64,000 nucleotides of DNA from Acidobacteriota bacterium (GCA_046732715.1 JBKPNQ010000156.1:1058-65057); one strand, 5' to 3'. Shown: positions 10,585 to 22,145, counted from the first letter of the stretch. Made by a program: numbers and translations. Notes: generated from the sequence alone by a model not told the origin.

Positions 10585-12045
10585 ATGTTTCAACAGATCG
10601 AGCGTCAGTTCATGCGGACCGCACGGCCGTTGTACGGGCATCTCGTCAACCTGTTCGAGTCGGCAATCGCCCGCGGCGAGCTGCCATCCGGTTCCCGGCT
10701 CCCGCCTGAGCGCGAGCTGGCCGGGCGGCTGGGGATCAGCCGTACGACGGTGGTGAGTGCCTATCGAGAGCTGGAATCCCGGGGCCTCCTCCGTGGGTAC
10801 GTCGGCCGCGGCACGTTCGTGTGCGCCGCACCGGAGCCGAGCGGGACCCCGTTCGCCTGGCGCGGCAAGATTGCGTCAGCGGCGCTGCGTTCGAGCGACT
10901 CGACATTGCGTGATGCGATTCGGCACTCGTCCGACGCGCGGCTGCTGTCGCTCGCCGCCGGCGAACCAGCAATCGACTGCTTCCCGACCGCCGCATTTCA
11001 GCAGGCTATCGATCACGTGTTGAGGCGCGACGCCGATGCCGTGTGGAGTCATGGTCCAACCGAAGGCCAACCGGCGCTGCGCGAGGCGATCGCCGAACGC
11101 TTCCGGGTGCCGGCCGAGAGCGTCCTCATTCTCGCCGGGGCGCAGCAGGGACTCGATCTGCTCGCGCGCTGCCTGGTCGATCCCGGCGATGCCGTGATCA
11201 TCGATCGGCCGGGCTATCTCGGCGCCATTCAGTCATTCCGTGCGGCCGGGGCGAAGTTGATCGGATGGGATGTGGCACGCGGGGAAATCGACGAGCTCGA
11301 AGACCTGCTCCTGCGATACCGGCCGAAGCTGATTTACACGAATCCGACGTTTCAGAACCCGACCGGCGTCACCATGCCGATTCGCACCCGACGTGAACTG
11401 CTGAAGCTGGCCGAGCGCTATCGCGTCCCCATCGTCGAAGACGCGACCTACGGCGAACTGTACTTTCACGACGCTCCGCCGCCGTCGCTGCGCGATCTGG
11501 ACGCACAGAATCTGGTGATTCACTTGAACAGTTTTTCCAAGGTGATGGCACCTGGCCTTCGCCTGGGATGGTTGTCCGCGGCGCCGTCGATCATCGATCA
11601 AATCGCGATCATCAAGCAGCGGCTCGATCCGCACACACAGAATCTCGTTCAGTTCGCGATGGCACGGCTGATCCGTCAGGGCAGTTTCGATATCCACCTG
11701 AGGACGCTCCGTGAGGAGCACGCGCGTCGCTGCGCACAGATGGTCGCCGCGCTGCAGCGGCATGTCACCCCCGGCACGCTGCGATTTACGCGTCCGCACG
11801 GCGGGCTGTATCTGTGGTGCCGGCTGGTACCCGGGGTGAGCTCGCGCGCGCTGCTCGACCGCGCGCTAACCGCCGGCGTTGCGTTCATTGCCGGCGACGC
11901 GTTCTATCCTGATCCGGCGGGCGAGTCTGAGCTTCGACTCTGTTTCTCGAGCGTGATGCCTGCGACGATGGAGGATGCGGTGCGGCGACTGGCGAGTTGC
12001 CTGCCGGTTTCGGTCGAGCGACGACAGCTGCGCCCGATCGCATGA
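10585..12045 (+). CDS. MocR/GntR-family transcriptional regulator fused to PLP-dependent aminotransferase domain
   Basis: SD GGGAGGG before ATG 10585. wHTH LPPERELAGRLGISRTTVVSAYRELE. PLP-lysine motif NSFSKVMAPGLRLGW. Confidence 0.85.
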   Translation: MFQQIERQFMRTARPLYGHLVNLFESAIARGELPSGSRLPPERELAGRLGISRTTVVSAYRELESRGLLRGYVGRGTFVCAAPEPSGTPFAWRGKIASAALRSSDSTLRDAIRHSSDARLLSLAAGEPAIDCFPTAAFQQAIDHVLRRDADAVWSHGPTEGQPALREAIAERFRVPAESVLILAGAQQGLDLLARCLVDPGDAVIIDRPGYLGAIQSFRAAGAKLIGWDVARGEIDELEDLLLRYRPKLIYTNPTFQNPTGVTMPIRTRRELLKLAERYRVPIVEDATYGELYFHDAPPPSLRDLDAQNLVIHLNSFSKVMAPGLRLGWLSAAPSIIDQIAIIKQRLDPHTQNLVQFAMARLIRQGSFDIHLRTLREEHARRCAQMVAALQRHVTPGTLRFTRPHGGLYLWCRLVPGVSSRALLDRALTAGVAFIAGDAFYPDPAGESELRLCFSSVMPATMEDAVRRLASCLPVSVERRQLRPIA

Positions 12046-12557
12046 GCGATCAGCCGACGAAAGAGGTCTCCGTGCGTGAAGTCGAGCGGCTTCGGCGCGA
12101 GCTGATGGCCACGCTGAACGGCGATCCGTGGTACGGCCCCGCCGTGTCCAACATCCTCGACGGCATTGCCGCCGACATGGCCGCGGCGCATCCGATTCCA
12201 GGCGCCCATTCGATTTGGGAGCTTGTCCTTCACATGACCGCCTGGGTGAACGAGACAAAGCGGCGGCTCGAAGGAGGACCGCACCGAACGCCGGCTGAAG
12301 GAGACTGGCCTGCGGTTCGATCGATGACGCAGGAGGCGTGGACCGCAGCGCTCGCCGCTCTGCGGCAGTCCCACGACGATCTGTCCCGAACGATTGGTGC
12401 AGCCGAAGACTCGAGCCTGAGCCGGCAGATTGGCGGCCCGCAGGTCGATGCCATTGGAAACCCGGTCTCCTACTATCAGACGATCGTCGGGATCCTGCAG
12501 CACGACGCCTATCATGCTGGACAGATCGCGCTGCTCAAGAAAGTTCTGCATCGCTAA
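12042..12557 (+). CDS. DinB family protein (paralogue 1)
   Basis: ATG 12042 overlaps the MocR stop (ATGA). DinB-type His motifs ELVLHMTAW and LQHDAYHAGQI. Confidence 0.75.
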   Translation: MSDQPTKEVSVREVERLRRELMATLNGDPWYGPAVSNILDGIAADMAAAHPIPGAHSIWELVLHMTAWVNETKRRLEGGPHRTPAEGDWPAVRSMTQEAWTAALAALRQSHDDLSRTIGAAEDSSLSRQIGGPQVDAIGNPVSYYQTIVGILQHDAYHAGQIALLKKVLHR

Positions 12558-12893: not shown

Positions 12894-14489
12894 CTACACG
12901 ATTGCTGGCGGAGCCCCGTGACCGCTTTTGAAAGCGTCTCTATTGGTGCTGAAGATGACGCCGGGTGAGAGCTTCCAGTCCGGATCCAGCGCCCGCTTCA
13001 CTTCACGCATCTCGGCGATTCCCTGCTCTCCGTAGAGCTGGAGCAGCAGCTGTTGCTTCACGGGGTTGCGGCCGACACCGTGCTCGGCTAGCGGACATCC
13101 TCCCAGCCGGGCCGCTGCGCGGCCGAATTCGAGAATCGCGTCTTTGCCGCGCTCGACGTCTGCGTACGATCGCGGGATGACATTTGGATGCACGTTGCCG
13201 TCGGAGATGTGACCCCAGATCGCGTAGTCCAACTCACGGGCGTCGAATCCCTGCTTGTAGACATCCATCATCTCTGCGAACCGGTCGAGCGGCACCACCA
13301 TGTCTGCCGCGGTCTTGGCAATCTCGGGATGGATGTCCCGCTTCGCAATGCCAACCCGGCGGTTGACACCCGCCGGCACGGCCTCGCGAATCGCGATCAG
13401 CTGCGCCGCACGTCGCCGATCTTCCGGCATCGCAAGTTCGGTTGCGTCGAACAGGTCGCGTTCGGCGAGCATCCGGCAGAAACGCACGATGGCAGAGTCA
13501 GACGCCCCGGGCATCAACGCGCTGCCGATCTGATCGTAGGCCTCGGCTCGGGTGAGCCCTGGCGGCAGCTCGAGCTGCACCAGGAGGGCAACAGCGGTCT
13601 CGTCGGGAAACGAGACGTCGTTTCGTGCATCGGCTCCGTCCTCGCGCAGGATCGCGATCGACCGCGCATCCATGTTCTCGATGGCGGCGATGTCGATGCC
13701 GTTCTGATTCCCGGTCCGCCAGGTGTCGAGCGAAGCATGGCGTAGCGTCAATACCAGCTCGAGGGCCTGCTGTTCGGACCGGCACGGAATCAGCGCGAGC
13801 GCGGATTGCGGAACTGGTGAAAGGACGCGAAACGTCACCTGTGCAACGACGCCAAGCGTTCCTTCGGCGCCAATGAAGAGATCGACGAGATCCATGTCAG
13901 GAGCGGCATGGTATCCGGCTGAGCGCTTCGACACATTCGGCATCGCATAGCGCGGTAACGGAATCGAGATCCGTCCTCCGCCGGCCAGCACGTCGATCGA
14001 TCGGTCGTGCGCATGGTGCTCGCCTCGTTTCAAATCGAGGATCGTGCCGTCGGCCAGCACCACGACGAGACCCTCGACCCACTCGCGCGTGCTGCCGTAC
14101 TTGAACGTGGCGGCGCCGGCAGCGTTGGTCGAGACGATTCCCCCGACAGAGGCGCCCGTAAACGTGGGCGCCGGAGGAAACCAGCCTCCGACCGCTGCCA
14201 GTGTCTCCTGCATCGCGGCGATCGTCAGGCCGGCCTGAACTGTGATGCGATCGGCCGATCGGTCGATCACCTGCGTCATTCTTGTCGTCGCAACGATGAG
14301 CTCGCCCATCGGCGTCGCCCCTCCTGTCAACGACGACTGCGCGCCAATCGGAAGCACGGCTGGTGCAGATTTCACGGCCTCGGCAATCTCGCCTTCGGTC
14401 CGCGGGAAGACCACACCGGCAGCTTGGCCACCGGGGTAGTGGGCCGCATCTTCAAGAAATGCGGACGGTTCGCCGTACTCAATGGTCAT
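12894..14489 (-). CDS. FAD-binding oxidoreductase (GlcD / D-lactate dehydrogenase-like)
   Basis: Start taken at ATG 14489 (MTIEYGEP). FAD-binding N-domain (VFPRTEGEIAEAVK, LPIGAQSSLTGG). C-terminal GCPLAEHGVGR motif. Confidence 0.8.
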   Translation of the reverse strand: MTIEYGEPSAFLEDAAHYPGGQAAGVVFPRTEGEIAEAVKSAPAVLPIGAQSSLTGGATPMGELIVATTRMTQVIDRSADRITVQAGLTIAAMQETLAAVGGWFPPAPTFTGASVGGIVSTNAAGAATFKYGSTREWVEGLVVVLADGTILDLKRGEHHAHDRSIDVLAGGGRISIPLPRYAMPNVSKRSAGYHAAPDMDLVDLFIGAEGTLGVVAQVTFRVLSPVPQSALALIPCRSEQQALELVLTLRHASLDTWRTGNQNGIDIAAIENMDARSIAILREDGADARNDVSFPDETAVALLVQLELPPGLTRAEAYDQIGSALMPGASDSAIVRFCRMLAERDLFDATELAMPEDRRRAAQLIAIREAVPAGVNRRVGIAKRDIHPEIAKTAADMVVPLDRFAEMMDVYKQGFDARELDYAIWGHISDGNVHPNVIPRSYADVERGKDAILEFGRAAARLGGCPLAEHGVGRNPVKQQLLLQLYGEQGIAEMREVKRALDPDWKLSPGVIFSTNRDAFKSGHGAPPAIV

Positions 14490-14517
14490 GGCTGTTCGTG
14501 GCAAGCGATCCGCGACT

Positions 14518-14613
14518 CCGGGTCCGGGATCCCGGTTGACCCAGTTCCGAAGTCTCCCCGGATATCGGATCACGCATCACGGTCCCGGACCCGGTCGCCG
14601 TTTTCGGGCGACC
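14518..14613. promoter_or_regulatory. Divergent control region with inverted repeats and a leader hairpin
   Basis: CCGGGTCCGGGA (14518-14529) and its exact reverse complement TCCCGGACCCGG (14583-14594). 12-bp palindrome CCGGGATCCCGG (14524-14535). 7-bp hairpin GGTCGCC-N7-GGCGACC (14593-14613), 21 nt before ATG 14635. Confidence 0.3.
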
Positions 14614-14634
14614 ACTGAAGTATTATCGCGTGGT

Positions 14635-15759
14635 ATGACACACCGGTTCACGGTGGGGGTCGAAGAGGAGTTTCAGATCGTCGATCCGAAGACCTGGGAG
14701 CTGCGATCTCACGTCTCGGAGCTGCTCGCGTCGAGCTCGCCGGCGCTCGGCGAGCAGGTCAAGCGCGAGCTGCACCAGTCGATCATCGAAGTCGGCACGA
14801 AGATCTGCCAGAACGTACCCGAACTCCGCGAAGAGATCTTCAGAACCCGCCGCGAACTGACCGGCGGAGCCGAACGAGTCGGCCTCGCGGTCGCGGCCGC
14901 CGGGACCCATCCGTTCTCGGACTGGAAAGATCAGATCCTGTCTCCTGGTGTCCGTTACGACAGCATCGTGGAAGAGTTGCAGCAGCTGGCGCGGTCGCTC
15001 CTGATTTTCGGGCTGCACGTCCACGTCGCCGTGCCCGACAACCAGACCGCGATCGACATCATGAATGCGGCGAGATATTTCCTGCCGCACTTGCTCGCGT
15101 TATCCACCAGCTCGCCGTTCTGGATGGGGCGCGACACCGGCCTCAAGTCGTATCGCACGACGATCTTCCGTCGCTTTCCGCGCACCGGCGTGCCGGATCA
15201 TTTCGGCTCGTGGAGCGAGTACGAGAACTACATCAAGCTCCTGGTCGAGCTGCACTGCATCGACGATGCGAAAAAGATCTGGTGGGACGTGCGGCCGCAC
15301 CCAACCTTCGGCACGTTGGAGTTCCGCGTCTGTGACGTGCCGACCCGCCCCGAGGTGGCGGTGATGCTCGGCGCGCTCGCCCAGGCGATCGTCGTCAAGC
15401 TGCACAAGCTGTATACGCGGAATCTCGGCTTCCGGCTCTATCGCCGCGCCTTGATCGAAGAGAACAAGTGGCGTGCCGCGCGGTGGGGGATCGACGGCAA
15501 GCTGATTGACTTCGGCAAGCGGTCCGAGGTGCCGATGCGGCAGCTGGCGCTCGAGCTCTTGGAGTTCATCGACGACGTCGTCGACGAGCTGGAGAGCCGC
15601 GAAGCGGTGGAGTACGTGCACAGCGTCCTTCGTGAAGGGACGAGCGCCGATCAGCAGCTCGCGGTCTTTCGAGAGACCGGCGACCTCAAAGCCGTCGTCC
15701 GCCACATCGTCAACGAGACGCGCGCGGGCGTCGATCGCCGGGGAGAAGCGAGAGTATGA
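14635..15759 (+). CDS. Carboxylate-amine ligase, YbdK / glutamate-cysteine ligase family 2 (GCS2)
   Basis: N-terminus MTHRFTVGVEEEFQIVD is typical of GCS2. 374 aa. First gene of a tightly packed four-gene unit. Confidence 0.85.
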   Translation: MTHRFTVGVEEEFQIVDPKTWELRSHVSELLASSSPALGEQVKRELHQSIIEVGTKICQNVPELREEIFRTRRELTGGAERVGLAVAAAGTHPFSDWKDQILSPGVRYDSIVEELQQLARSLLIFGLHVHVAVPDNQTAIDIMNAARYFLPHLLALSTSSPFWMGRDTGLKSYRTTIFRRFPRTGVPDHFGSWSEYENYIKLLVELHCIDDAKKIWWDVRPHPTFGTLEFRVCDVPTRPEVAVMLGALAQAIVVKLHKLYTRNLGFRLYRRALIEENKWRAARWGIDGKLIDFGKRSEVPMRQLALELLEFIDDVVDELESREAVEYVHSVLREGTSADQQLAVFRETGDLKAVVRHIVNETRAGVDRRGEARV

Positions 15760-16760
15760 GTCCTCAATCGAGTGCGATAAAGCCGATCGGTCTGCTCGTC
15801 GGACGCGAGTACAGTTTTCCGCCGGCGTTCATCGCCCGCGTCAATGACAAAGGAGCCAGCCACGGCATCACCGCGGAGATGGTGCAGTGGGGCGGGACCA
15901 GGCTCGACGATCCGCCGAAATATTCGCTGATCGTCGACCGCATTTCCCACGAGGTGGAGTACTACCGTGGCGCGCTGAAGCACGCGATTCTCCAAGGCAC
16001 TTACGTCATCAACAACCCGTTTTGGTGGACCGCCGACGACAAGTATTTCAACTACGCGGTCATGTCGAGGCTGGGATGCGCGATCCCGAAGACGGTCCTG
16101 CTTCCACAGAAGGGATACCCCGCCGACATCGATCTGACGCCGGAATCGTTGCGGAACATGCAGTACCCGATCGACTGGGACGGCCTGCTTGACTACGTCG
16201 GTCGACCGGCGATTCTGAAACCGTATTCGGGCGGAGGATGGAAGCACGTCTACAAGGTGCGCGATGCCCGTGAGCTGATCGAGGCGTATGACGGCACCGC
16301 GCCATATTGCATGACATTGCAGGAGTTCATCGACTTCGACGGGTACGTCCGATGTTTTACCTTTGGCAAGACCGACATCACCCCGGTGCGCTACGATCCG
16401 CACCAGCGGTGTTATCTCGTCGATCATGCCTACCTCACGCCCGAACTTGGAGCCCGAATCGTCCGCGACGCACAGACGATCAACAAAGCGCTCGGTTACG
16501 AGATGAACACGATCGAATTTGCGGTGCGCGACGGCGTGCCGTACGCGATTGACTATCTCAATCCGGCTCCCGACTTTGAGCGCGAACGGATTACGGATTT
16601 TTACTTCACTCACGTGGTCGAAAAGATGAGCGACCTGGTGATCGATCGCGCGCTCAATCCCGATCCGACGCGCAGCTGGCCGCGATGGGAAGAGATGCTC
16701 GGCATCGGCTCGGCCGCCGGCTTCATTGGGGCCCCCCGCTCGCCAGCCGCGACGACATAA
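15756..16760 (+). CDS. ATP-grasp domain protein (RimK/glutathione-synthetase-like fold), unknown substrate
   Basis: ATGA overlap with the previous gene. ATP-grasp-like core ...RPAILKPYSGGGWKHVYKV... QEFIDFDGYVRCF ... NTIEFAVRDGVPYAIDYLN. Confidence 0.6.
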   Translation: MSPQSSAIKPIGLLVGREYSFPPAFIARVNDKGASHGITAEMVQWGGTRLDDPPKYSLIVDRISHEVEYYRGALKHAILQGTYVINNPFWWTADDKYFNYAVMSRLGCAIPKTVLLPQKGYPADIDLTPESLRNMQYPIDWDGLLDYVGRPAILKPYSGGGWKHVYKVRDARELIEAYDGTAPYCMTLQEFIDFDGYVRCFTFGKTDITPVRYDPHQRCYLVDHAYLTPELGARIVRDAQTINKALGYEMNTIEFAVRDGVPYAIDYLNPAPDFERERITDFYFTHVVEKMSDLVIDRALNPDPTRSWPRWEEMLGIGSAAGFIGAPRSPAATT

Positions 16761-18122
16761 ATGGACGCCATCGACGCCTGGCACTCGCTGCTGCGTCCCG
16801 ATGTCGAGCTGAGCCGACGCTACTTCGAGGAATTCTCGGCCGCGATGCGGTCGCACAAGCTCACGTTCGGCGATCGGATTCACTGTCCGTTTCTGCGGCC
16901 TTTCTTCCTGACGGAAGAAGACGAGTCGCGCATGCGCGCGGCAGCCGAAACCATTGCTGCGCTCGGTGAGCGCGTGATCGCGGCAGCCCTCGAGACCTCG
17001 TCGATCTTCAACCAGCTCGGGCTGACCGAGGCCGAAGAGCGGCTGGTGCGGCTCGATCCCGGGTACGAATGCGCGAGCACCGCATCACGGCTCGATGCGT
17101 TCCTGCTGCCCGACTCGCTGCATTTCGCCGAATACAATGCCGAGTCTCCAGCCGGCCTGGCCTATACGCAGCGACTGTGCGAGCTGTTCGAGGACATGCC
17201 AGCGATGCAAGCATTTCGCGCCGGCCGGCATGTGAGGTTCAACCGGACCATCGAACCGATGCTCGAGGGATTACTTGCCAGCTATAAGGATTGGGGTGGA
17301 CGCGCCGATCCTCCGGTCGTGGCGATCGTCGACTGGCGAAACGTGCCGACGTGGTCGGAGTTTGAAATCCTTCGGGATGCCTTCACCGCACTCGGAGTGC
17401 CGACGCTGGTGTGCGATCCCAGAGAACTGACATTCGAGGCCGGCGCGCTGCGGTACGGGGAATCCCGCATCGACCTCGTCTATCGCCGTGTGCTCATCAA
17501 CGACATCGTTGCGCGGCCCGACGACTGCGTGGCACTGATCCAGGCGTACGCCGAGCGGGCGGTCTGCGTCGCGAACACGTTCCGGTGCAAGCTGGCGCAC
17601 AAGAAGGCGTTCTTCGCCGTCCTGACCGACGAGCGGCACGAAGCGCTGTTTTCAGCCGCCGAGCGAGACGCCATTCGGGCGCACGTGCCGTGGACCCGCG
17701 TGCTCGCCGACACCGACACGGTCATGGATGGGCGGCGTCAGCCGCTCATGCGGCTGGCCGAAGATCACCGCGATGCGCTGGTGCTGAAGCCGAACGACGA
17801 GTACGGCGGCGCCGGGGTAAAGCTTGGCTGGGAGCTGACCCCTGGCGAGTGGAGCGCCGCGCTCGCCGAAGCGCTGAACGCGCCGGCTGGCAGCTGGGTG
17901 CTGCAGGAAAGAATTCCCGTCCGCCGCGAAACGTTTCCCATGTTTGATTCCGCCGGCGACGTGGCGATGCGCAACATGCTGGTGGATTTCGCGCCCTACC
18001 TGGTACGAGGCCGCATGACCGGGTATCTGACCCGACTCAGTTCCACCGGCTTGGCAAACGTGACGTCGGGCGGCGGCCAGGTTCCGGCATTTGTCGTCGG
18101 CCGGTCGATTTCCTCTGCTTGA
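16761..18122 (+). CDS. Circularly permuted ATP-grasp-like / glutathionylspermidine-synthase-like ligase
   Basis: ATG immediately follows the previous stop. C-terminal LVLKPNDEYGGAGV ... LTRLSSTGLANVTSGGGQVPAFVV resembles the CP-ATP-grasp signature (..KP..G.GG.G.. / ..N.S.GGG.KD.WV). Confidence 0.55.
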   Translation: MDAIDAWHSLLRPDVELSRRYFEEFSAAMRSHKLTFGDRIHCPFLRPFFLTEEDESRMRAAAETIAALGERVIAAALETSSIFNQLGLTEAEERLVRLDPGYECASTASRLDAFLLPDSLHFAEYNAESPAGLAYTQRLCELFEDMPAMQAFRAGRHVRFNRTIEPMLEGLLASYKDWGGRADPPVVAIVDWRNVPTWSEFEILRDAFTALGVPTLVCDPRELTFEAGALRYGESRIDLVYRRVLINDIVARPDDCVALIQAYAERAVCVANTFRCKLAHKKAFFAVLTDERHEALFSAAERDAIRAHVPWTRVLADTDTVMDGRRQPLMRLAEDHRDALVLKPNDEYGGAGVKLGWELTPGEWSAALAEALNAPAGSWVLQERIPVRRETFPMFDSAGDVAMRNMLVDFAPYLVRGRMTGYLTRLSSTGLANVTSGGGQVPAFVVGRSISSA

Positions 18123-18135
18123 TACAATTGTGGCG

Positions 18136-19167
18136 ATGATGTTCGGGCCTGTCAGCGACGACCTGCTTCCCGGCGCGCACAACGCCGTCAACACCTGCCT
18201 GGCGATTCGTCGCGGCGAACATGTCGCGCTGGTCGCCGACGAGGCGAGCCGCGCGGTGGCGGCGAGCCTCGAACGGGCGCTGATCGATGCCGGCGCCGAC
18301 GCTCACGGCCTCCTGATCGAATCGGCGGCTTCGCGTCCGATCACATCGGCTCCGCTCGAAGTTCTTCGCGCGTTCGAGAGCGCCGAGGCGGGCATCCTGT
18401 GTGTGCAGCCGCAAGAAGGCGAGCTGCCCGCCCGCATGGCGATCGTCGGTCTGATTGAGCGGCGCCGGATCCGCTACGCGCACATGGTTGGCGTGACGCC
18501 GCAGATCATGCGCGAGGGCATGCGCGCCGACTACCGGCAGGTCGACCGCCTGAGCACACAGTTGTGCGAGCGGATGGAGCGGGCGAGATCGCTGTCCGTT
18601 CGTACCGCGAACGGGACGGACTTCCGGGCCACCTTCGATCCTTCGCTGGCGTGGGTGAAGACGAGCGGATTGATCAACCCGCCCTACTGGTCGAACCTGC
18701 CAGCCGGAGAAGTGTTCACGACACCAGGCTCGGTCGATGGAACGTTCGTCTGCGACGGAACCGCCGGCGATTACTTCAACGCGAAGTACGGCAGCCTCGA
18801 TGAAACCCCGCTGGTGCTGGAGATTCGCGACGGCCGGCTCACGTCGGCGCAGTGTGATCGCTCCGATCTGGAACGTGACTTCTGGAGCTACTGCCATACC
18901 GACGAAAACAGCAATCGCGTCGGCGAGCTCGCGTTCGGCACGAATCTCGGCTTGCGCGAGATGATTGGCATTCTGCTGCAGGACGAGAAAGTGCCGGGTG
19001 TCCATCTGGCGTTTGGCGATCCCTATGGCAGCCAGACCCATGCCGACTGGAAATCGCGCACCCACGTCGATGTCCTCACACGGCACTGCGATGTCTGGAT
19101 CGATGACGAACAGGTCATCGCCGACGGACAGTACCTCCTCGAGAAGTTCGACCTGGTCGCTAGATGA
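18136..19167 (+). CDS. Aminopeptidase, M29 (AmpS/PepS-like) family
   Basis: Start ATG 18136, 13 nt after the previous stop. C-terminal GELAFGTN...VPGVHLAFGDPYG...THVD pattern is typical of M29 thermophilic metalloproteases. Confidence 0.65.
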   Translation: MMFGPVSDDLLPGAHNAVNTCLAIRRGEHVALVADEASRAVAASLERALIDAGADAHGLLIESAASRPITSAPLEVLRAFESAEAGILCVQPQEGELPARMAIVGLIERRRIRYAHMVGVTPQIMREGMRADYRQVDRLSTQLCERMERARSLSVRTANGTDFRATFDPSLAWVKTSGLINPPYWSNLPAGEVFTTPGSVDGTFVCDGTAGDYFNAKYGSLDETPLVLEIRDGRLTSAQCDRSDLERDFWSYCHTDENSNRVGELAFGTNLGLREMIGILLQDEKVPGVHLAFGDPYGSQTHADWKSRTHVDVLTRHCDVWIDDEQVIADGQYLLEKFDLVAR

Positions 19168-19170
19168 TCA

Positions 19171-19313
19171 GGTTCTACTAGGTTCTGCGCGATTCTACTG
19201 GGTTTTGCAAGGTTCGTTCAGGTTCTGCCGGCTCCGCGAGTGACCGCACCTCGCGGAACCTGATGAACGAACCCTGTAGAACCTCGTGGAACCTTGAAGA
19301 ACCCCGTAGAACC
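19171..19313. repeat. Long imperfect palindrome: six GGTTC-type decamers, central 7-bp GC stem, six GAACC-type decamers (10-nt phasing)
   Basis: Left units start at 19171, 19181, 19191, 19201, 19211 and 19221. Centre is CCGCGAG-N9-CTCGCGG (19234-19256). GAACC ends at 19260, 19273, 19283, 19293, 19303 and 19313. Lies between convergent genes. Confidence 0.8.
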
Positions 19314-19317
19314 TTAT

Positions 19318-20046
19318 CTACCAATGTGAGATGTACTCCCGGAGCTGCTCCTTCCAATAAGGCCAGTCGTGGCCTCCGCGCGGGCCCCAGTCATCCAGCG
19401 CATGGCGGATTCCCTGTCTGGCAAGCACGCCTGACATCGCGTACGAATAGCCGCTCTTCTCGTACGGGCCGGTCCCGGTGACCAATCTGATCTCACAGGT
19501 CGATAGCTGGTCGAGGTACCACGGATCGGTCAGGTTGGACATGTAGTCGACCGGGTTCTGAAAGTAGAAATTGTCGTCGTACAACCCGCCCATGAAATCT
19601 CGAAGGTCGAAAATACCCGAGAGCGCGTAGCAGCGCTTCACGAGGTGCGGGTAATGAAACAGCGTGTTGGCCGCATGGTAGGCGCCCAGTGAGGCGCCCA
19701 CGGTCGCGATCGGAATCCCTGGTGTCTGACAGCTCGAGTGCACGTAGGGAATGACTTCGTCCCTGATGTACTCGTCGAACATGCGTTGCCGCCAGCTGCG
19801 GTGAAACGGATGCGCGTGTGTGTTCAGGAACGATTCGTGGTTGTTCGACCCGACGCAGAACACCTTGAGCCGTCCGGCATCGATGAAATCGCCGATCGCG
19901 GCGATGAGGCCGTTCCGCTGGAGCTCCCACTCGTCGCCATGGCTCGTCGGAAATGCGAGCAGCGGTGGGCCCCAATGGCCGAACACCGAGACGCCCATGT
20001 CGTGTTGCAGGCGCGGGGAATACCAATATTGATGAAACGTTTGCAT
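19318..20046 (-). CDS. Esterase family protein (alpha/beta hydrolase)
   Basis: Start ATG 20046 (MQTFHQYWY). Nucleophile elbow GASLGAY. The upstream part of the ORF-track frame runs through the heptamer arrays. Confidence 0.7.
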   Translation of the reverse strand: MQTFHQYWYSPRLQHDMGVSVFGHWGPPLLAFPTSHGDEWELQRNGLIAAIGDFIDAGRLKVFCVGSNNHESFLNTHAHPFHRSWRQRMFDEYIRDEVIPYVHSSCQTPGIPIATVGASLGAYHAANTLFHYPHLVKRCYALSGIFDLRDFMGGLYDDNFYFQNPVDYMSNLTDPWYLDQLSTCEIRLVTGTGPYEKSGYSYAMSGVLARQGIRHALDDWGPRGGHDWPYWKEQLREYISHW

Positions 20047-20131: not shown

Positions 20132-20810
20132 TTACGAGGTGACGAGAACGATCGAGAAGCCGTCGTATCCCTTGGAACTGACGGTTTGAATCGCCGTCGC
20201 ATCCACGCGCGGTTCGGCGGCGGCCATCGTGAAAAACCGTTGCATGCCCTGGACGTTGGGATCTGTTGCCGAAGGATTGGCCACTTCACCCTTCCGGATC
20301 ACGTTGTCCACGACGATGATCGATCCAGCGTGTGACAGCTTGAGTGCCCACGTGAAGTATTGAGGGGTGTTTGGTTTGTCCGCGTCGATGAAGACGAGAT
20401 CGAATGGCGCGATTCCTTCGGTGGCTATCCTGGGCAGGGTGTCGAGAGCAGGTCCCAGCCGTACATCTACCATTCGGTCGAGCCCGGCGCGCGCGACGTT
20501 GGCGCGCGCCAGTTGGGCATGACGCGCATCGGCTTCCAGCGTGATCAGTCGGCCGCCCGGTTTCAGCGCCCGCGCCAGCCAGATGGTGCTGTATCCGCCA
20601 AGCGTGCCAACCTCCAGAATCGCGTGGGCGTTCACGAGCCGGGCCAGCATCTGAAGAAACTTGCCCTGGCTTGGCGCGACGTTGATCGGGGGAAGGCCGG
20701 CGGCATCGCTGCTGTCGAGCGCGGCGGCCAGGGCCGTGTCCGGTTTGACGATCGTGTCCGTGAGATAGCGGTCGACCGTGGCCCACAATTCTTCGGTCAT
20801 GGTTGTCATG
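20132..20810 (-). CDS. Class I SAM-dependent O-methyltransferase (caffeoyl-CoA OMT-like, family 3)
   Basis: Start ATG 20810. LEVGTLGGYS motif I and FDLVFIDADK. Confidence 0.8.
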
Positions 20811-21276
20811 ATTTCCAAATCCCCAGCGACTTGCGGACGAGTATCAGCTGTCCGACGTGATAAGCCGTGTGATCGGCAGCCAGCACGATCTGGCGCATAT
20901 ACGTCTGCCCGCTGCCATGCGGAATCCGGTCCGAGAGATCGATGCTCGTATCGAGCGCCAGCTGTTGCAACGCTTCGCGATCCTTGCGGAACGAATCGAT
21001 AGAGTTGTCCCACTCTGAACCGGACGGAGGCGCCGGCGACGCCGGCCAGTAATCGGTCGGCCAGTCCATCTCTTCGTAATCCTTGTTGCGGCTGAAGTCC
21101 AGGATGTCGTGCTGGGCGATGCGCATGTGCTCGACGAGCTCCCACGGTGAATGGCCTTCGGCACGCTGGCCGCGAAAGTCCTCGGGAATACCCTCTACCG
21201 CCGCGTCGAAGCCAACGTGCGCGTCCTCCCAGGACAGCATTTTCGCCAAGAGTTCACGAACAGCCTGATCGCTCAT
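20806..21276 (-). CDS. DinB family protein (paralogue 2)
   Basis: Start ATG 21276 (MSDQAVREL). WELVEHMRIAQHD and DHTAYHVGQLILV. Its stop overlaps the OMT start. Confidence 0.75.
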   Translation of the reverse strand: MSDQAVRELLAKMLSWEDAHVGFDAAVEGIPEDFRGQRAEGHSPWELVEHMRIAQHDILDFSRNKDYEEMDWPTDYWPASPAPPSGSEWDNSIDSFRKDREALQQLALDTSIDLSDRIPHGSGQTYMRQIVLAADHTAYHVGQLILVRKSLGIWKS

Positions 21277-21335
21277 GAAGTGCTCCCCATATGAACCAGA
21301 TTGGGACCGGGATCCGCGGTCCGGATATATCGTAC

Positions 21336-22145
21336 TTACTTTGGCGGCACCGTGCCCCCGGCCGCAGCGGTCGGCGTTGGCCAGCCGATGAGATACGTGA
21401 GCATGCCGGGTCCGGCGAGAAGCGGGGTGTAGCCCGCCTGCCATGTCATCCTGTCGTTCGCCGGCGCTCCGAGGGCGACCAGCTCATTGGCCGTGTAGGC
21501 GCGAAATTGAGAGACCAGGCCGTCCCAAAGGCAAATCAACGGGACGCACGGGAGCGGGTAGGTGAACAACAACCGCTTCCAGGAGAAGGGCCGCATCCAG
21601 GGCGTGAATACCCAGACGAAGAGTGGCATCAACAGAACCGGCAGGATCGTCTTGAACGTTCGGCGCGACGCTTCGAAGATGGCAATCGGCTGTCGCGCAT
21701 TCGCTGCGTCGAGCAGGATTGCTCGTGCGTCCTCTGGCTTGAAGTGATGAAACGCGTTGAACAGGGTTCGCAGGCCGATCAGCTCACGCGGAACCGCCCT
21801 CGCGTCCACCGGCGTTCGCAGGTAGTCAATGGCGCCGCCTGAAGCCTTGGCCGCGTCTTCGAAGGCGGAAATGTTGGGAAAGAGATCGGTCAACGTGGCG
21901 GTTGCTTTGACGCCCGATTCGGCGAGGTCGGCGATCACCGCTGGCAACGGACCGGAACCTCCCGAACACAGATCGACGATACGCGTCGTCCCCGCAGCGT
22001 CGAGTGTCTGACGGATCAACGGCGTGATCGCGCGATGGAGCGGCAGCGCGGTCTGGATGAAGTGCAGGTAGTCGGTGGCCAGATCGCGAACCGTGACCGG
22101 ACACCAGGCCTGATCTTCAATCTCGAACAGGTGAAGCCTGCGCAA
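21336..22145 (-). CDS. SAM-dependent methyltransferase with hydrophobic C-terminal half
   Basis: Motif I IVDLCSGGSGP. The C-terminal segment ILPVLLMPLFVWVF...LPCVPLICLW is hydrophobic. Confidence 0.6.
   Translation of the reverse strand: MRRLHLFEIEDQAWCPVTVRDLATDYLHFIQTALPLHRAITPLIRQTLDAAGTTRIVDLCSGGSGPLPAVIADLAESGVKATATLTDLFPNISAFEDAAKASGGAIDYLRTPVDARAVPRELIGLRTLFNAFHHFKPEDARAILLDAANARQPIAIFEASRRTFKTILPVLLMPLFVWVFTPWMRPFSWKRLLFTYPLPCVPLICLWDGLVSQFRAYTANELVALGAPANDRMTWQAGYTPLLAGPGMLTYLIGWPTPTAAAGGTVPPK

Follow-up and report, generated by a model that had tools for sequence, protein, structure and literature searches.

The question raised by this locus is what three different ATP-dependent ligases and a peptidase-like metallohydrolase, encoded by four consecutive genes, might make together. 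The genes lie in a 64,000-nucleotide (nt) stretch of DNA from an Acidobacteriota bacterium (GCA_046732715.1, JBKPNQ010000156.1:1058-65057); this whole stretch is referred to as the window, and the four genes are designated G1 to G4 in transcript order. In our judgement, the balance tips modestly towards an Acidobacteriota-specific operon in which three ligases, acting in series, build a small peptide-like metabolite with ATP and independently of the ribosome. The first-pass annotation had described three different amide-ligase folds next to an M29-type aminopeptidase, and the three folds beside an M29-type metallohydrolase are supported here, that of G2 by weak evidence. The four genes are as follows.

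14635..15759, + strand: G1, a YbdK/GCS2-type carboxylate-amine ligase of 374 amino acids (PF04107, NF010039).
15756..16760, + strand: G2, an orphan classical (non-permuted) ATP-grasp-like protein of 334 amino acids, RimK/LysX/Ddl-like (weak profile and fold signals).
16761..18122, + strand: G3, a circularly permuted ATP-grasp ligase of 453 amino acids with a glutathione-synthetase/glutathionylspermidine-synthetase-like fold (PF14403).
18136..19167, + strand: G4, an M29-superfamily dinuclear metallohydrolase and putative exopeptidase of 343 amino acids (PF02073).

The linkage of these genes was followed through 160 distinct related loci (80 genome and 80 metagenome loci), in which G3 is 57-99% identical to that of the window and which were scored with profiles of the four proteins; counts are given as loci with a feature over loci with room for it in the fetched flank. 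G2 lies directly upstream of G3 in 128/128 loci and G1 directly upstream of G2 in 109/110, and synteny in relatives, which had been put forward as a check on the four-gene reading, is strongly borne out by these counts. G4 is found within 500 nt downstream of G3 in 83/131 loci, is displaced but still inside the fetched flank in 17/131 (adjacent or nearby in 100/131 in all), and is missing from the fetched flank in 31/131. Furthermore, a gene for a PF00756 hydrolase lies downstream, convergent on the opposite strand, in 81/114 loci. The unit of four genes proposed initially is therefore upheld in its first three members and has to be revised in the others: the three ligases G1-G2-G3 form an invariant core, whereas G4 is a frequent accessory, and a fifth gene, that of the hydrolase, belongs to the set in the same capacity. 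Where G4 is missing, the genes after G3 are unrelated ones, e.g., PhzF and gyrA. In four Vicinamibacterales loci (L016, L023, L040, and L056), 1.5-1.8 kilobases (kb) are inserted between G3 and G4, and the candidate open reading frames in the insertions (ORFs; e.g., L016:1661-2764 and L023:9469-9912) have no Pfam match.

A four-gene arrangement conserved across so many loci is far beyond chance. That functionally unrelated genes should merely have come to lie side by side is very improbable: the minority of loci whose flank lacks G4 and the hydrolase would fit such an accident, but the G1-G2-G3 order is essentially invariant over this range of G3 identity, the coding regions overlap or abut, and the three genes are kept together in a rearranged relative described below (L166). 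For G1-G3, chance adjacency is ruled out by the synteny data.

The window is close to Vicinamibacterales metagenome-assembled genomes (MAGs), and the G3 of a soil metagenome contig (L083) is 99% identical to its own. Terriglobia-type MAGs ('Ca. Acidiferrales' and 'Ca. Sulfotelmatobacter') have only G1-G4 and the hydrolase in common with the window, and the gaps between operon genes in these loci are ~60-125 nt. Identity across classes is ~73-95% for G1, ~68-90% for G2, ~57-86% for G3, and ~66-92% for G4, with G1 and G2 high at about 70-75%; strong purifying selection thus acts on the operon in two classes or more. The relatives recovered by genome and metagenome scans were all close ones (at least 55% identity), nearly all of them with an Acidobacteriota label, and among the loci examined the full G1-G2-G3(-G4) set was confined to Acidobacteriota. 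A locus with the full G1-G2-G3 core (L029, CAWGVW010000002.1) is labelled 'uncultured Gammaproteobacteria bacterium', and a G2 homologue (P0454) is labelled 'Candidatus Cybelea sp.'; the two labels are either binning or classification errors or rare occurrences outside Acidobacteriota.

Gene structure, families and folds (that of G2 on weak evidence), and catalytic motifs are, like the conserved linkage, matters of observation. In the window, the four ORFs are co-directional on the + strand and tightly joined. G1 and G2 share a 4-nt ATGA overlap at 15756-15759 (agtATGAgt), read from the sequence; G2 and G3 abut, with TAA followed by ATG at 16758-16763 (acaTAAATGgac) and 0 nt at 16760/16761; and the TGA of G3 at 18120-18122 is separated by a 13-nt gap from the ATGATG beginning at 18136. 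No terminator-like site was found on the + strand within the operon, promoter-like matches in it occur at chance level only, and no Rfam element was found at the operon, including any riboswitch or leader upstream; the G+C content of ~0.62-0.64 equals that of the surroundings. Consequently, the gene calls and junctions of the first-pass annotation hold, as does its reading of a single operon, given the overlapping or abutting genes and the lack of an internal terminator-like site; its remark that no small precursor-peptide ORF is present also proved correct, because gaps of -4, 0, and 13 nt leave no room for one.

The ATG at 14635, which is in-frame inside a longer ORF (14482-15759), is the correct start of G1 because G1 homologues are 364-380 amino acids long in nearly all related loci, which matches the 374-amino-acid choice. 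An upstream ATG at 14482, corresponding to a 51-codon extension (14482-14634, + strand), was rejected, as neither homologue lengths nor family matches give it support. G4 is likewise in-frame inside an ORF of 18091-19167. Two antisense ORFs (15651-16883, - strand, 410 amino acids; 18037-19086, - strand, 349 amino acids) are apparent high-G+C artefacts and were dismissed because the + strand ORFs hold the family matches and conserved homologues. Membership in anti-phage defence was also rejected, since the PADLOC models gave no match among the five proteins (G1-G4 and the hydrolase).

Family matches identify G1 as a solid YbdK/GCS2 carboxylate-amine ligase. It matches GCS2 (PF04107) over its full length with E=2.3e-63 and 214.7 bits (cutoff, 21), the NCBIfam model NF010039 'carboxylate-amine ligase' with 523.4 bits (cutoff, 371), and the solved structure of Escherichia coli YbdK (1r8g) with E=1.1e-49 over residues 3-346. 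It stays below the 'glutamate--cysteine ligase' equivalog cutoffs of NF010043 (391 vs 409), NF010041 (307 vs 332), and NF010045 (226 vs 395). Characterised YbdK-type enzymes are gamma-Glu-Cys ligases, as exemplified by EgtA and haloarchaeal GshA.

G2 is an orphan with respect to Pfam, in which it has no match even at E<=10. Against TIGR00768 (rimK_fam) it reaches 1.7e-7 and 30.9 bits, far under the cutoff of 143.4, and its family profile matches D-Ala-D-Ala ligase (3r23, E=8.7e-4) and PurK (5e-3) in the PDB. An AlphaFold2 (AF2) model built from a 26-sequence alignment (79-90% identity) is poor, with a predicted local distance difference test (pLDDT) score of 49; its top 50 Foldseek matches are all ATP-grasp enzymes with template-modelling (TM) scores of only ~0.2, so they are merely indicative, and ArgX/LysX complexes and the kinase ITPK1 are among the top matches of this low-confidence model. 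The invariant, ATP-grasp-like motifs of the family are PAILKPYSGGGWKHV (K155 and the Gly loop), LQEFI (E190), and IEFA...IDYLNPAPD (E254, D266, and N269). Their order is classical, i.e., K155 and G159-G161, then E190, then E254/D266/N269, all of these residues being invariant or nearly so, and the acidic-Asn spacing is D-x-x-N, not the usual E-x-N. The stretch NNPFWWTADDK is also among those invariant in the family. The earlier assignment of G2 to the classical ATP-grasp proteins can be retained insofar as motif order, profile, and fold matches agree, with the reservation that no Pfam ATP-grasp family covers it and that the evidence is weak. These weak but consistent signals suggest a place among RimK/LysX/Ddl-type ATP-grasp enzymes. 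A ligase function is likely rather than shown because an ATP-grasp kinase (ITPK1) occurs among the fold matches. The family is large and extremely conserved, with at least ~8,000 homologue clusters at 90% identity. Among the homologues listed, the named organisms are almost only Acidobacteriota and most entries are called 'hypothetical protein', and the Joint Genome Institute (JGI) label is 'glutathione synthase/RimK-type ligase'. No G2 relatives were found in the plasmid collection.

The circularly permuted ATP-grasp assignment of G3, already made in the first-pass annotation, was confirmed on three sides, i.e., by Pfam, fold search, and motif order. Residues 124-426 match CP_ATPgrasp_2 (PF14403) with 36.9 bits (gathering score, 32), and this annotation is common to all 120 closest G3 homologues. 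The AF2 model is of moderate quality (pLDDT, 64.5; predicted TM score, 0.65). Foldseek ranks glutathione and homoglutathione synthetases from human, yeast, and plants highest against it, followed by YjfC/YgiC, Cp1B, GspS, and TryS; from the eukaryote-type synthetases through TryS, E ranges from 1e-7 to 1e-3 and TM from 0.40 to 0.45, and the entries 8fbz, 2hgs, 1m0w, 3kal, 7uk6, 7uk8, 9cjn, and 2io7 lie between 1e-7 and 2e-4. By sequence alone, a profile of the diverse family matches 3n6x ('putative glutathionylspermidine synthase', 5.7e-15), Cp1B (7.5e-10), and YgiC (4.7e-5) in the PDB, and YjfC and GspS are matched as well (entries 3n6x, 9cjn, 7uk8, and 2io7). E124-x-N126 lies far N-terminal to the K343/G349-G350 loop and the Q382 hinge. 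This arrangement inverts that of G2, as expected from a circular permutation. On these matches and the moderate-confidence model, the predicted topology of G3 is the permuted one common to eukaryote-type glutathione synthetase and GspS. The wider family comprises 593 representatives at 50% clustering (E<1e-30); relatives in the plasmid collection reach only ~25% identity, several being annotated as members of the glutathionylspermidine synthase family, and are uninformative.

G4 matches Peptidase_M29 (PF02073) with 45.1 bits against a gathering score of 27, over profile positions 182-353 of 406 only, and its family profile also matches the aminopeptidase AmpS (1zjc). In the alignment, residues E192, E264, and H290 occupy the positions of the AmpS metal-binding motifs PTEEVFT, GEVAL, and CHLAIG, and the C-terminal H310-x-D312 aligns with the HxD of the dioxygenase NicX; all five positions are invariant in the family alignment. 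NicX, as aligned, lacks both Glu positions, whereas G4 keeps Glu, Glu, and His together with HxD. G4 is read as a hydrolase because the AmpS-type metal ligands are kept, unlike in NicX, and it is probably an exopeptidase. By contrast with M29 aminopeptidases (AmpS, AmpT, and PepS), which are ~410 amino acids long, G4 has 343 and matches only the C-terminal half of the profile, although it shares with them the PF02073 match and the AmpS-aligned Glu, Glu, His, His, and Asp. The label of M29-type aminopeptidase given to it at first is thus sustained by the family match and the five ligands and qualified by the fact that its nearest solved sequence is a dioxygenase.

With these assignments, a route can be proposed in which substrates, order of steps, product, gamma-glutamyl chemistry, and roles of the hydrolases are inferred. 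G1 would form the first amide, which by comparison with its characterised relatives would be gamma-glutamyl, e.g., between Glu and Cys or another amino acid or amine. G2 and G3 would each convert a free carboxylate into an acyl-phosphate and join a further amino acid or amine to it, so that the series might deliver a tri- or tetrapeptide or a peptidyl-amine. G4 and the convergent hydrolase may trim, mature, or recycle the product, possibly by removing an N-terminal (gamma-)glutamyl residue. The characterised structural relatives of G3, namely glutathione/homoglutathione synthetases, YgiC/YjfC, and Cp1B, all join small peptides to amino acids or amines; YgiC/YjfC are peptide-spermidine ligases, and Cp1B belongs to the E-64 pathway (PMC12568646).

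Several points weigh against this proposal. The substrates, products, and activities of the present members of G1-G4 are predictions from sequence only. E. coli YbdK is merely a weak gamma-Glu-Cys ligase, and for this reason a gamma-glutamyl product is an extrapolation. The fold of G2 relies on sub-threshold sequence matches and a low-confidence model, and the ATP-grasp fold includes kinases; the G3 model is only of moderate confidence, with TM scores of ~0.4-0.45 to its matches; and the sequence of known structure nearest to G4 is NicX (7cn3, 4.3e-10). Moreover, G4 and the hydrolase are non-obligatory partners, given their absence from the fetched flank of about a quarter of the loci.

The following features surround or adjoin the four genes.

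19318..20046, - strand: convergent alpha/beta-hydrolase ('putative esterase', PF00756) of ~242 amino acids, from Pfam; a member of the conserved set and the downstream boundary of the operon.
19168..19317, no strand: 150-nt AGGTTC hairpin between the convergent G4 and hydrolase genes, from RNA fold and motif count.
11997-12557, + strand: stand-alone DinB_2/MST-like gene on one side of the operon.
20806-21444, - strand: stand-alone DinB_2/MST-like gene on the other side of the operon.
12894-14573, - strand: divergent GlcD-like FAD oxidase; the upstream boundary of the operon.

The hydrolase matches PF00756 with 42 bits against a gathering score of 22 and shows a nucleophile elbow, GASLG, together with the His of a C-terminal GGHDW; its matches to solved structures, S-formylglutathione hydrolase (E=0.017) and antigen 85, are marginal only. 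The hairpin is near-perfect, with AGGTTC hexamers every 10 nt, ~6 on one arm, and their complements on the other arm; its RNA fold has a free energy of -81.1 kcal/mol (z = -10.3 vs shuffles), and the array motif has 7 matches in the 64 kb, all in the hairpin, where 0.18 are expected. The element recurs at this position in several close relatives (L001/L006, L004, L005, L083, and L128), among which hexamer cores and arm complementarity are kept and spacers vary. It is a probable bidirectional terminator or repetitive extragenic palindromic (REP)-like element, and it could be a REP- or miniature inverted-repeat transposable element (MITE)-like element or a protein-binding array. A similar AGGTTC array lies upstream of G1 in L058.

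The flanks of the operon are syntenic in Vicinamibacterales, where they include the DinB genes, a MocR-type (MocR/GntR-aminotransferase) regulator, a YHS-domain protein, the FAD oxidase, an O-methyltransferase, an unknown 269-amino-acid protein, and an Amidohydro_3 protein. A catabolic or salvage role is conceivable, in which an environmental amine or peptide would be captured by gamma-glutamylation or ligation in the manner of the Puu-type pathways, processed by the neighbouring oxidase and amidohydrolases, and released by peptidases; the divergent oxidase, regulator, O-methyltransferase, and Amidohydro_3 protein fit such a role, as do the two hydrolases of the conserved set. The flank genes are not kept in Terriglobia-type loci, however, which retain just G1-G4 and the hydrolase; a catabolic pathway would hardly warrant three ATP-consuming ligases in a row, and the orthologous loci contain no linked transporter. 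We hold this role to be improbable, the lowest of the functional alternatives considered here.

Breadth beyond the close relatives was sampled with 11 loci carrying G3 relatives at 30-45% identity. In an Acidobacteriota MAG (L166, G3 40% identical), the order at L166:1764-11265 is hydrolase, G2, an EgtC-like GAT-II protein on the opposite strand, G3, and G1, with no G4 and with a PIN/PhdYeFM toxin-antitoxin pair inserted before G3; functional coupling is well supported because the linkage survives this change of gene order. The EgtC-like amidohydrolase scores 134.6 bits on TIGR03442, below the cutoff of 218.65. With G4 exchanged for an enzyme of the gamma-glutamyl amidohydrolase type, it may be that each of the two takes off an N-terminal (gamma-)glutamyl group. 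Two tandem paralogues after G1 in this locus (364 and 375 amino acids) match neither Pfam nor NCBIfam models, and the other fetched loci contain no homologue of them. A same-strand run at L169:958-7150 contains a G3-like gene, a GCS2 gene, a gene for a ~700-amino-acid TPR-AhpC/TSA-redoxin/thioredoxin-fold protein, and a second G3 paralogue, and at L171:207-3660 a TPR and AhpC/TSA-redoxin protein is encoded directly upstream of a G3 paralogue; these redoxin neighbours are a possible thiol-redox link for the wider G3 family. In a distant lineage (L174), G3 and G4 form a pair, and in L163 and L172 the G3 relative is paired with other ATP-grasp ligases, in L163 also with an oligopeptide ABC transporter. 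No operon partner was found beside the G3 relative in L165, L168, L170, and L173.

The same relatives bear on the possibility that the product is a Cys-containing low-molecular-weight thiol, i.e., a glutathione-like tripeptide or glutathionyl-amine made by G1 and then G2 and G3, which would serve redox or detoxification enzymes. Besides the redoxin proteins and the EgtC-like enzyme, this idea draws on the gamma-Glu-Cys ligase activity of characterised YbdK-type enzymes, the NF010043 score of G1 just under the cutoff, the glutathione/homoglutathione synthetases and GspS/TryS among the best structural matches of G3, the JGI label on G2 homologues, and the DinB_2/MST-like genes on both sides of the operon. 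Yet no operon gene is thiol-specific, the best NCBIfam match of G1 is the generic 'carboxylate-amine ligase' and not a glutamate-cysteine ligase model, and the redoxin association is confined to distant relatives. Genes of the DinB fold abound in these genomes, also at unrelated loci (L024 and L168), and Acidobacteria are predicted by genome surveys to make bacillithiol or N-methyl-bacillithiol (PMC6282198), which already gives the DinB proteins a candidate thiol. The connection between nearby DinB genes and a new thiol, ventured as a speculation in the first-pass annotation, is therefore weak, and a thiol product is unlikely.

A different role is suggested by L167:2-2141, where a MATCAP/DUF1704 gene (134 bits) directly precedes a CP_ATPgrasp_2 gene. 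The MATCAP family, to which the eukaryotic tubulin detyrosinating carboxypeptidase belongs, reverses an ATP-grasp-made protein modification in eukaryotes, and this bacterial ligase-peptidase pair is reminiscent of tubulin tyrosination/detyrosination. The ligases of the operon might thus add amino acids to the C-terminus or a side chain of a peptide or protein, as RimK, LysX, and tubulin-tyrosine ligase do, with the M29 peptidase and the hydrolase reversing or processing the modification. RimK and LysX, which act on proteins, are the nearest sequence families of G2, ArgX/LysX complexes appear among its fold matches, and the Pup ligase PafA is a member of the carboxylate-amine ligase superfamily. 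However, no small ORF and no conserved gene for a carrier or target like LysW, Pup, or S6 was found in or next to the operon, whose intergenic gaps are short both here and in Terriglobia-type loci; the characterised structural relatives of G3 all act on small molecules; and G4 is of the exopeptidase type with an AmpS-like site. Protein tagging is accordingly a doubtful explanation, ranking just after a thiol product.

Serial assembly of a small peptide-like metabolite is thus the explanation that we prefer. In its boldest form, the product would be a new gamma-glutamyl peptide or peptidyl-amine, perhaps a lineage-specific thiol or cofactor comparable to glutathionylspermidine, and G2 would be the founder of a new ATP-grasp family; this form is tentative, with a chance well short of even. 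Acidobacteriota are dominant, poorly cultured soil bacteria, of whose lineage-specific metabolism very little has been characterised. The wide conservation of the operon and the number of G2 clusters speak for a metabolite of housekeeping character and against an occasional secondary product. Identification of the product would give function to four poorly characterised families at once, including an ATP-grasp family not covered by Pfam, and would test a comparative-genomics prediction of 2009 taken up below; if it were a thiol or stress-protective peptide, it would be a new entry among the few bacterial low-molecular-weight redox or compatible solutes.

Among known systems, the pathway from GshA through GshB to GspS/TryS has the same three-ligation fold sequence as G1, G2, and G3, plus a hydrolase able to reverse a step. 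Orthology is lacking, however: G1 is a YbdK-type GCS2 protein and not GshA, G1-G4 gave no matches to the GshA, GshB, and CHAP models, and G3 has neither a GSP_synth match nor a CHAP amidase domain. E. coli YgiC/YjfC, described as peptide-spermidine ligases by Pederick et al. (2023), as cited in PMC12568646, and fungal Cp1B are stand-alone permuted ATP-grasp ligases with the fold of G3 (Foldseek E ~1e-5) that link a small acid or a peptide with an amine or an amino acid, but their identity to G3 is only ~10-14% and their contexts contain no GCS2, second ATP-grasp, or M29 partner. With the ergothioneine pathway, the operon shares a G1 of the same subfamily type as EgtA, and L166 adds an EgtC-like protein, a combination that by analogy suggests an add-then-remove gamma-glutamyl logic. 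G1 nevertheless scores under the EgtA-type cutoffs (NF010041 and NF010043, as above), the operon contains no EgtB, EgtD, or EgtE homologue, and the nearby DinB_2 genes encode short stand-alone proteins. The earlier statement that the gene set matches no characterised pathway is consistent with these comparisons, since none of the glutathione, glutathionylspermidine, and ergothioneine pathways fits, and literature searches on CP_ATPgrasp_2, PF14403, and RoseRS_2616 found no characterised member.

Novelty is nonetheless narrower than the absence of a characterised counterpart implies. A 2009 study by Iyer, Abhiman, Burroughs, and Aravind in Mol Biosyst reportedly described a neighbourhood of permuted ATP-grasp, GCS2-like ligase, alpha/beta-hydrolase peptidase, GAT-II amidohydrolase, and M20 peptidase; this neighbourhood is said to have been predicted to make small peptides, and the PF14403 description is said to derive from the same study. 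On that account, the grouping of G3, GCS2 ligase, and hydrolase had already been predicted computationally. The operon has in common with that neighbourhood the PF14403 protein G3, the GCS2 ligase (the near-invariant G1, also found in L166 and L169), and the alpha/beta-hydrolase (in 81/114 loci and in L166). By contrast, GAT-II and M20 are absent from the operon of the window, an EgtC-like GAT-II being found only in L166 and an M29-like protein standing in place of M20, and the operon adds the invariant third ligase G2, which has no Pfam model and is seemingly confined to Acidobacteriota. The operon is a lineage-specific extension of a class reportedly predicted by comparative genomics, in which G2 and the M29-like G4 are the new elements.

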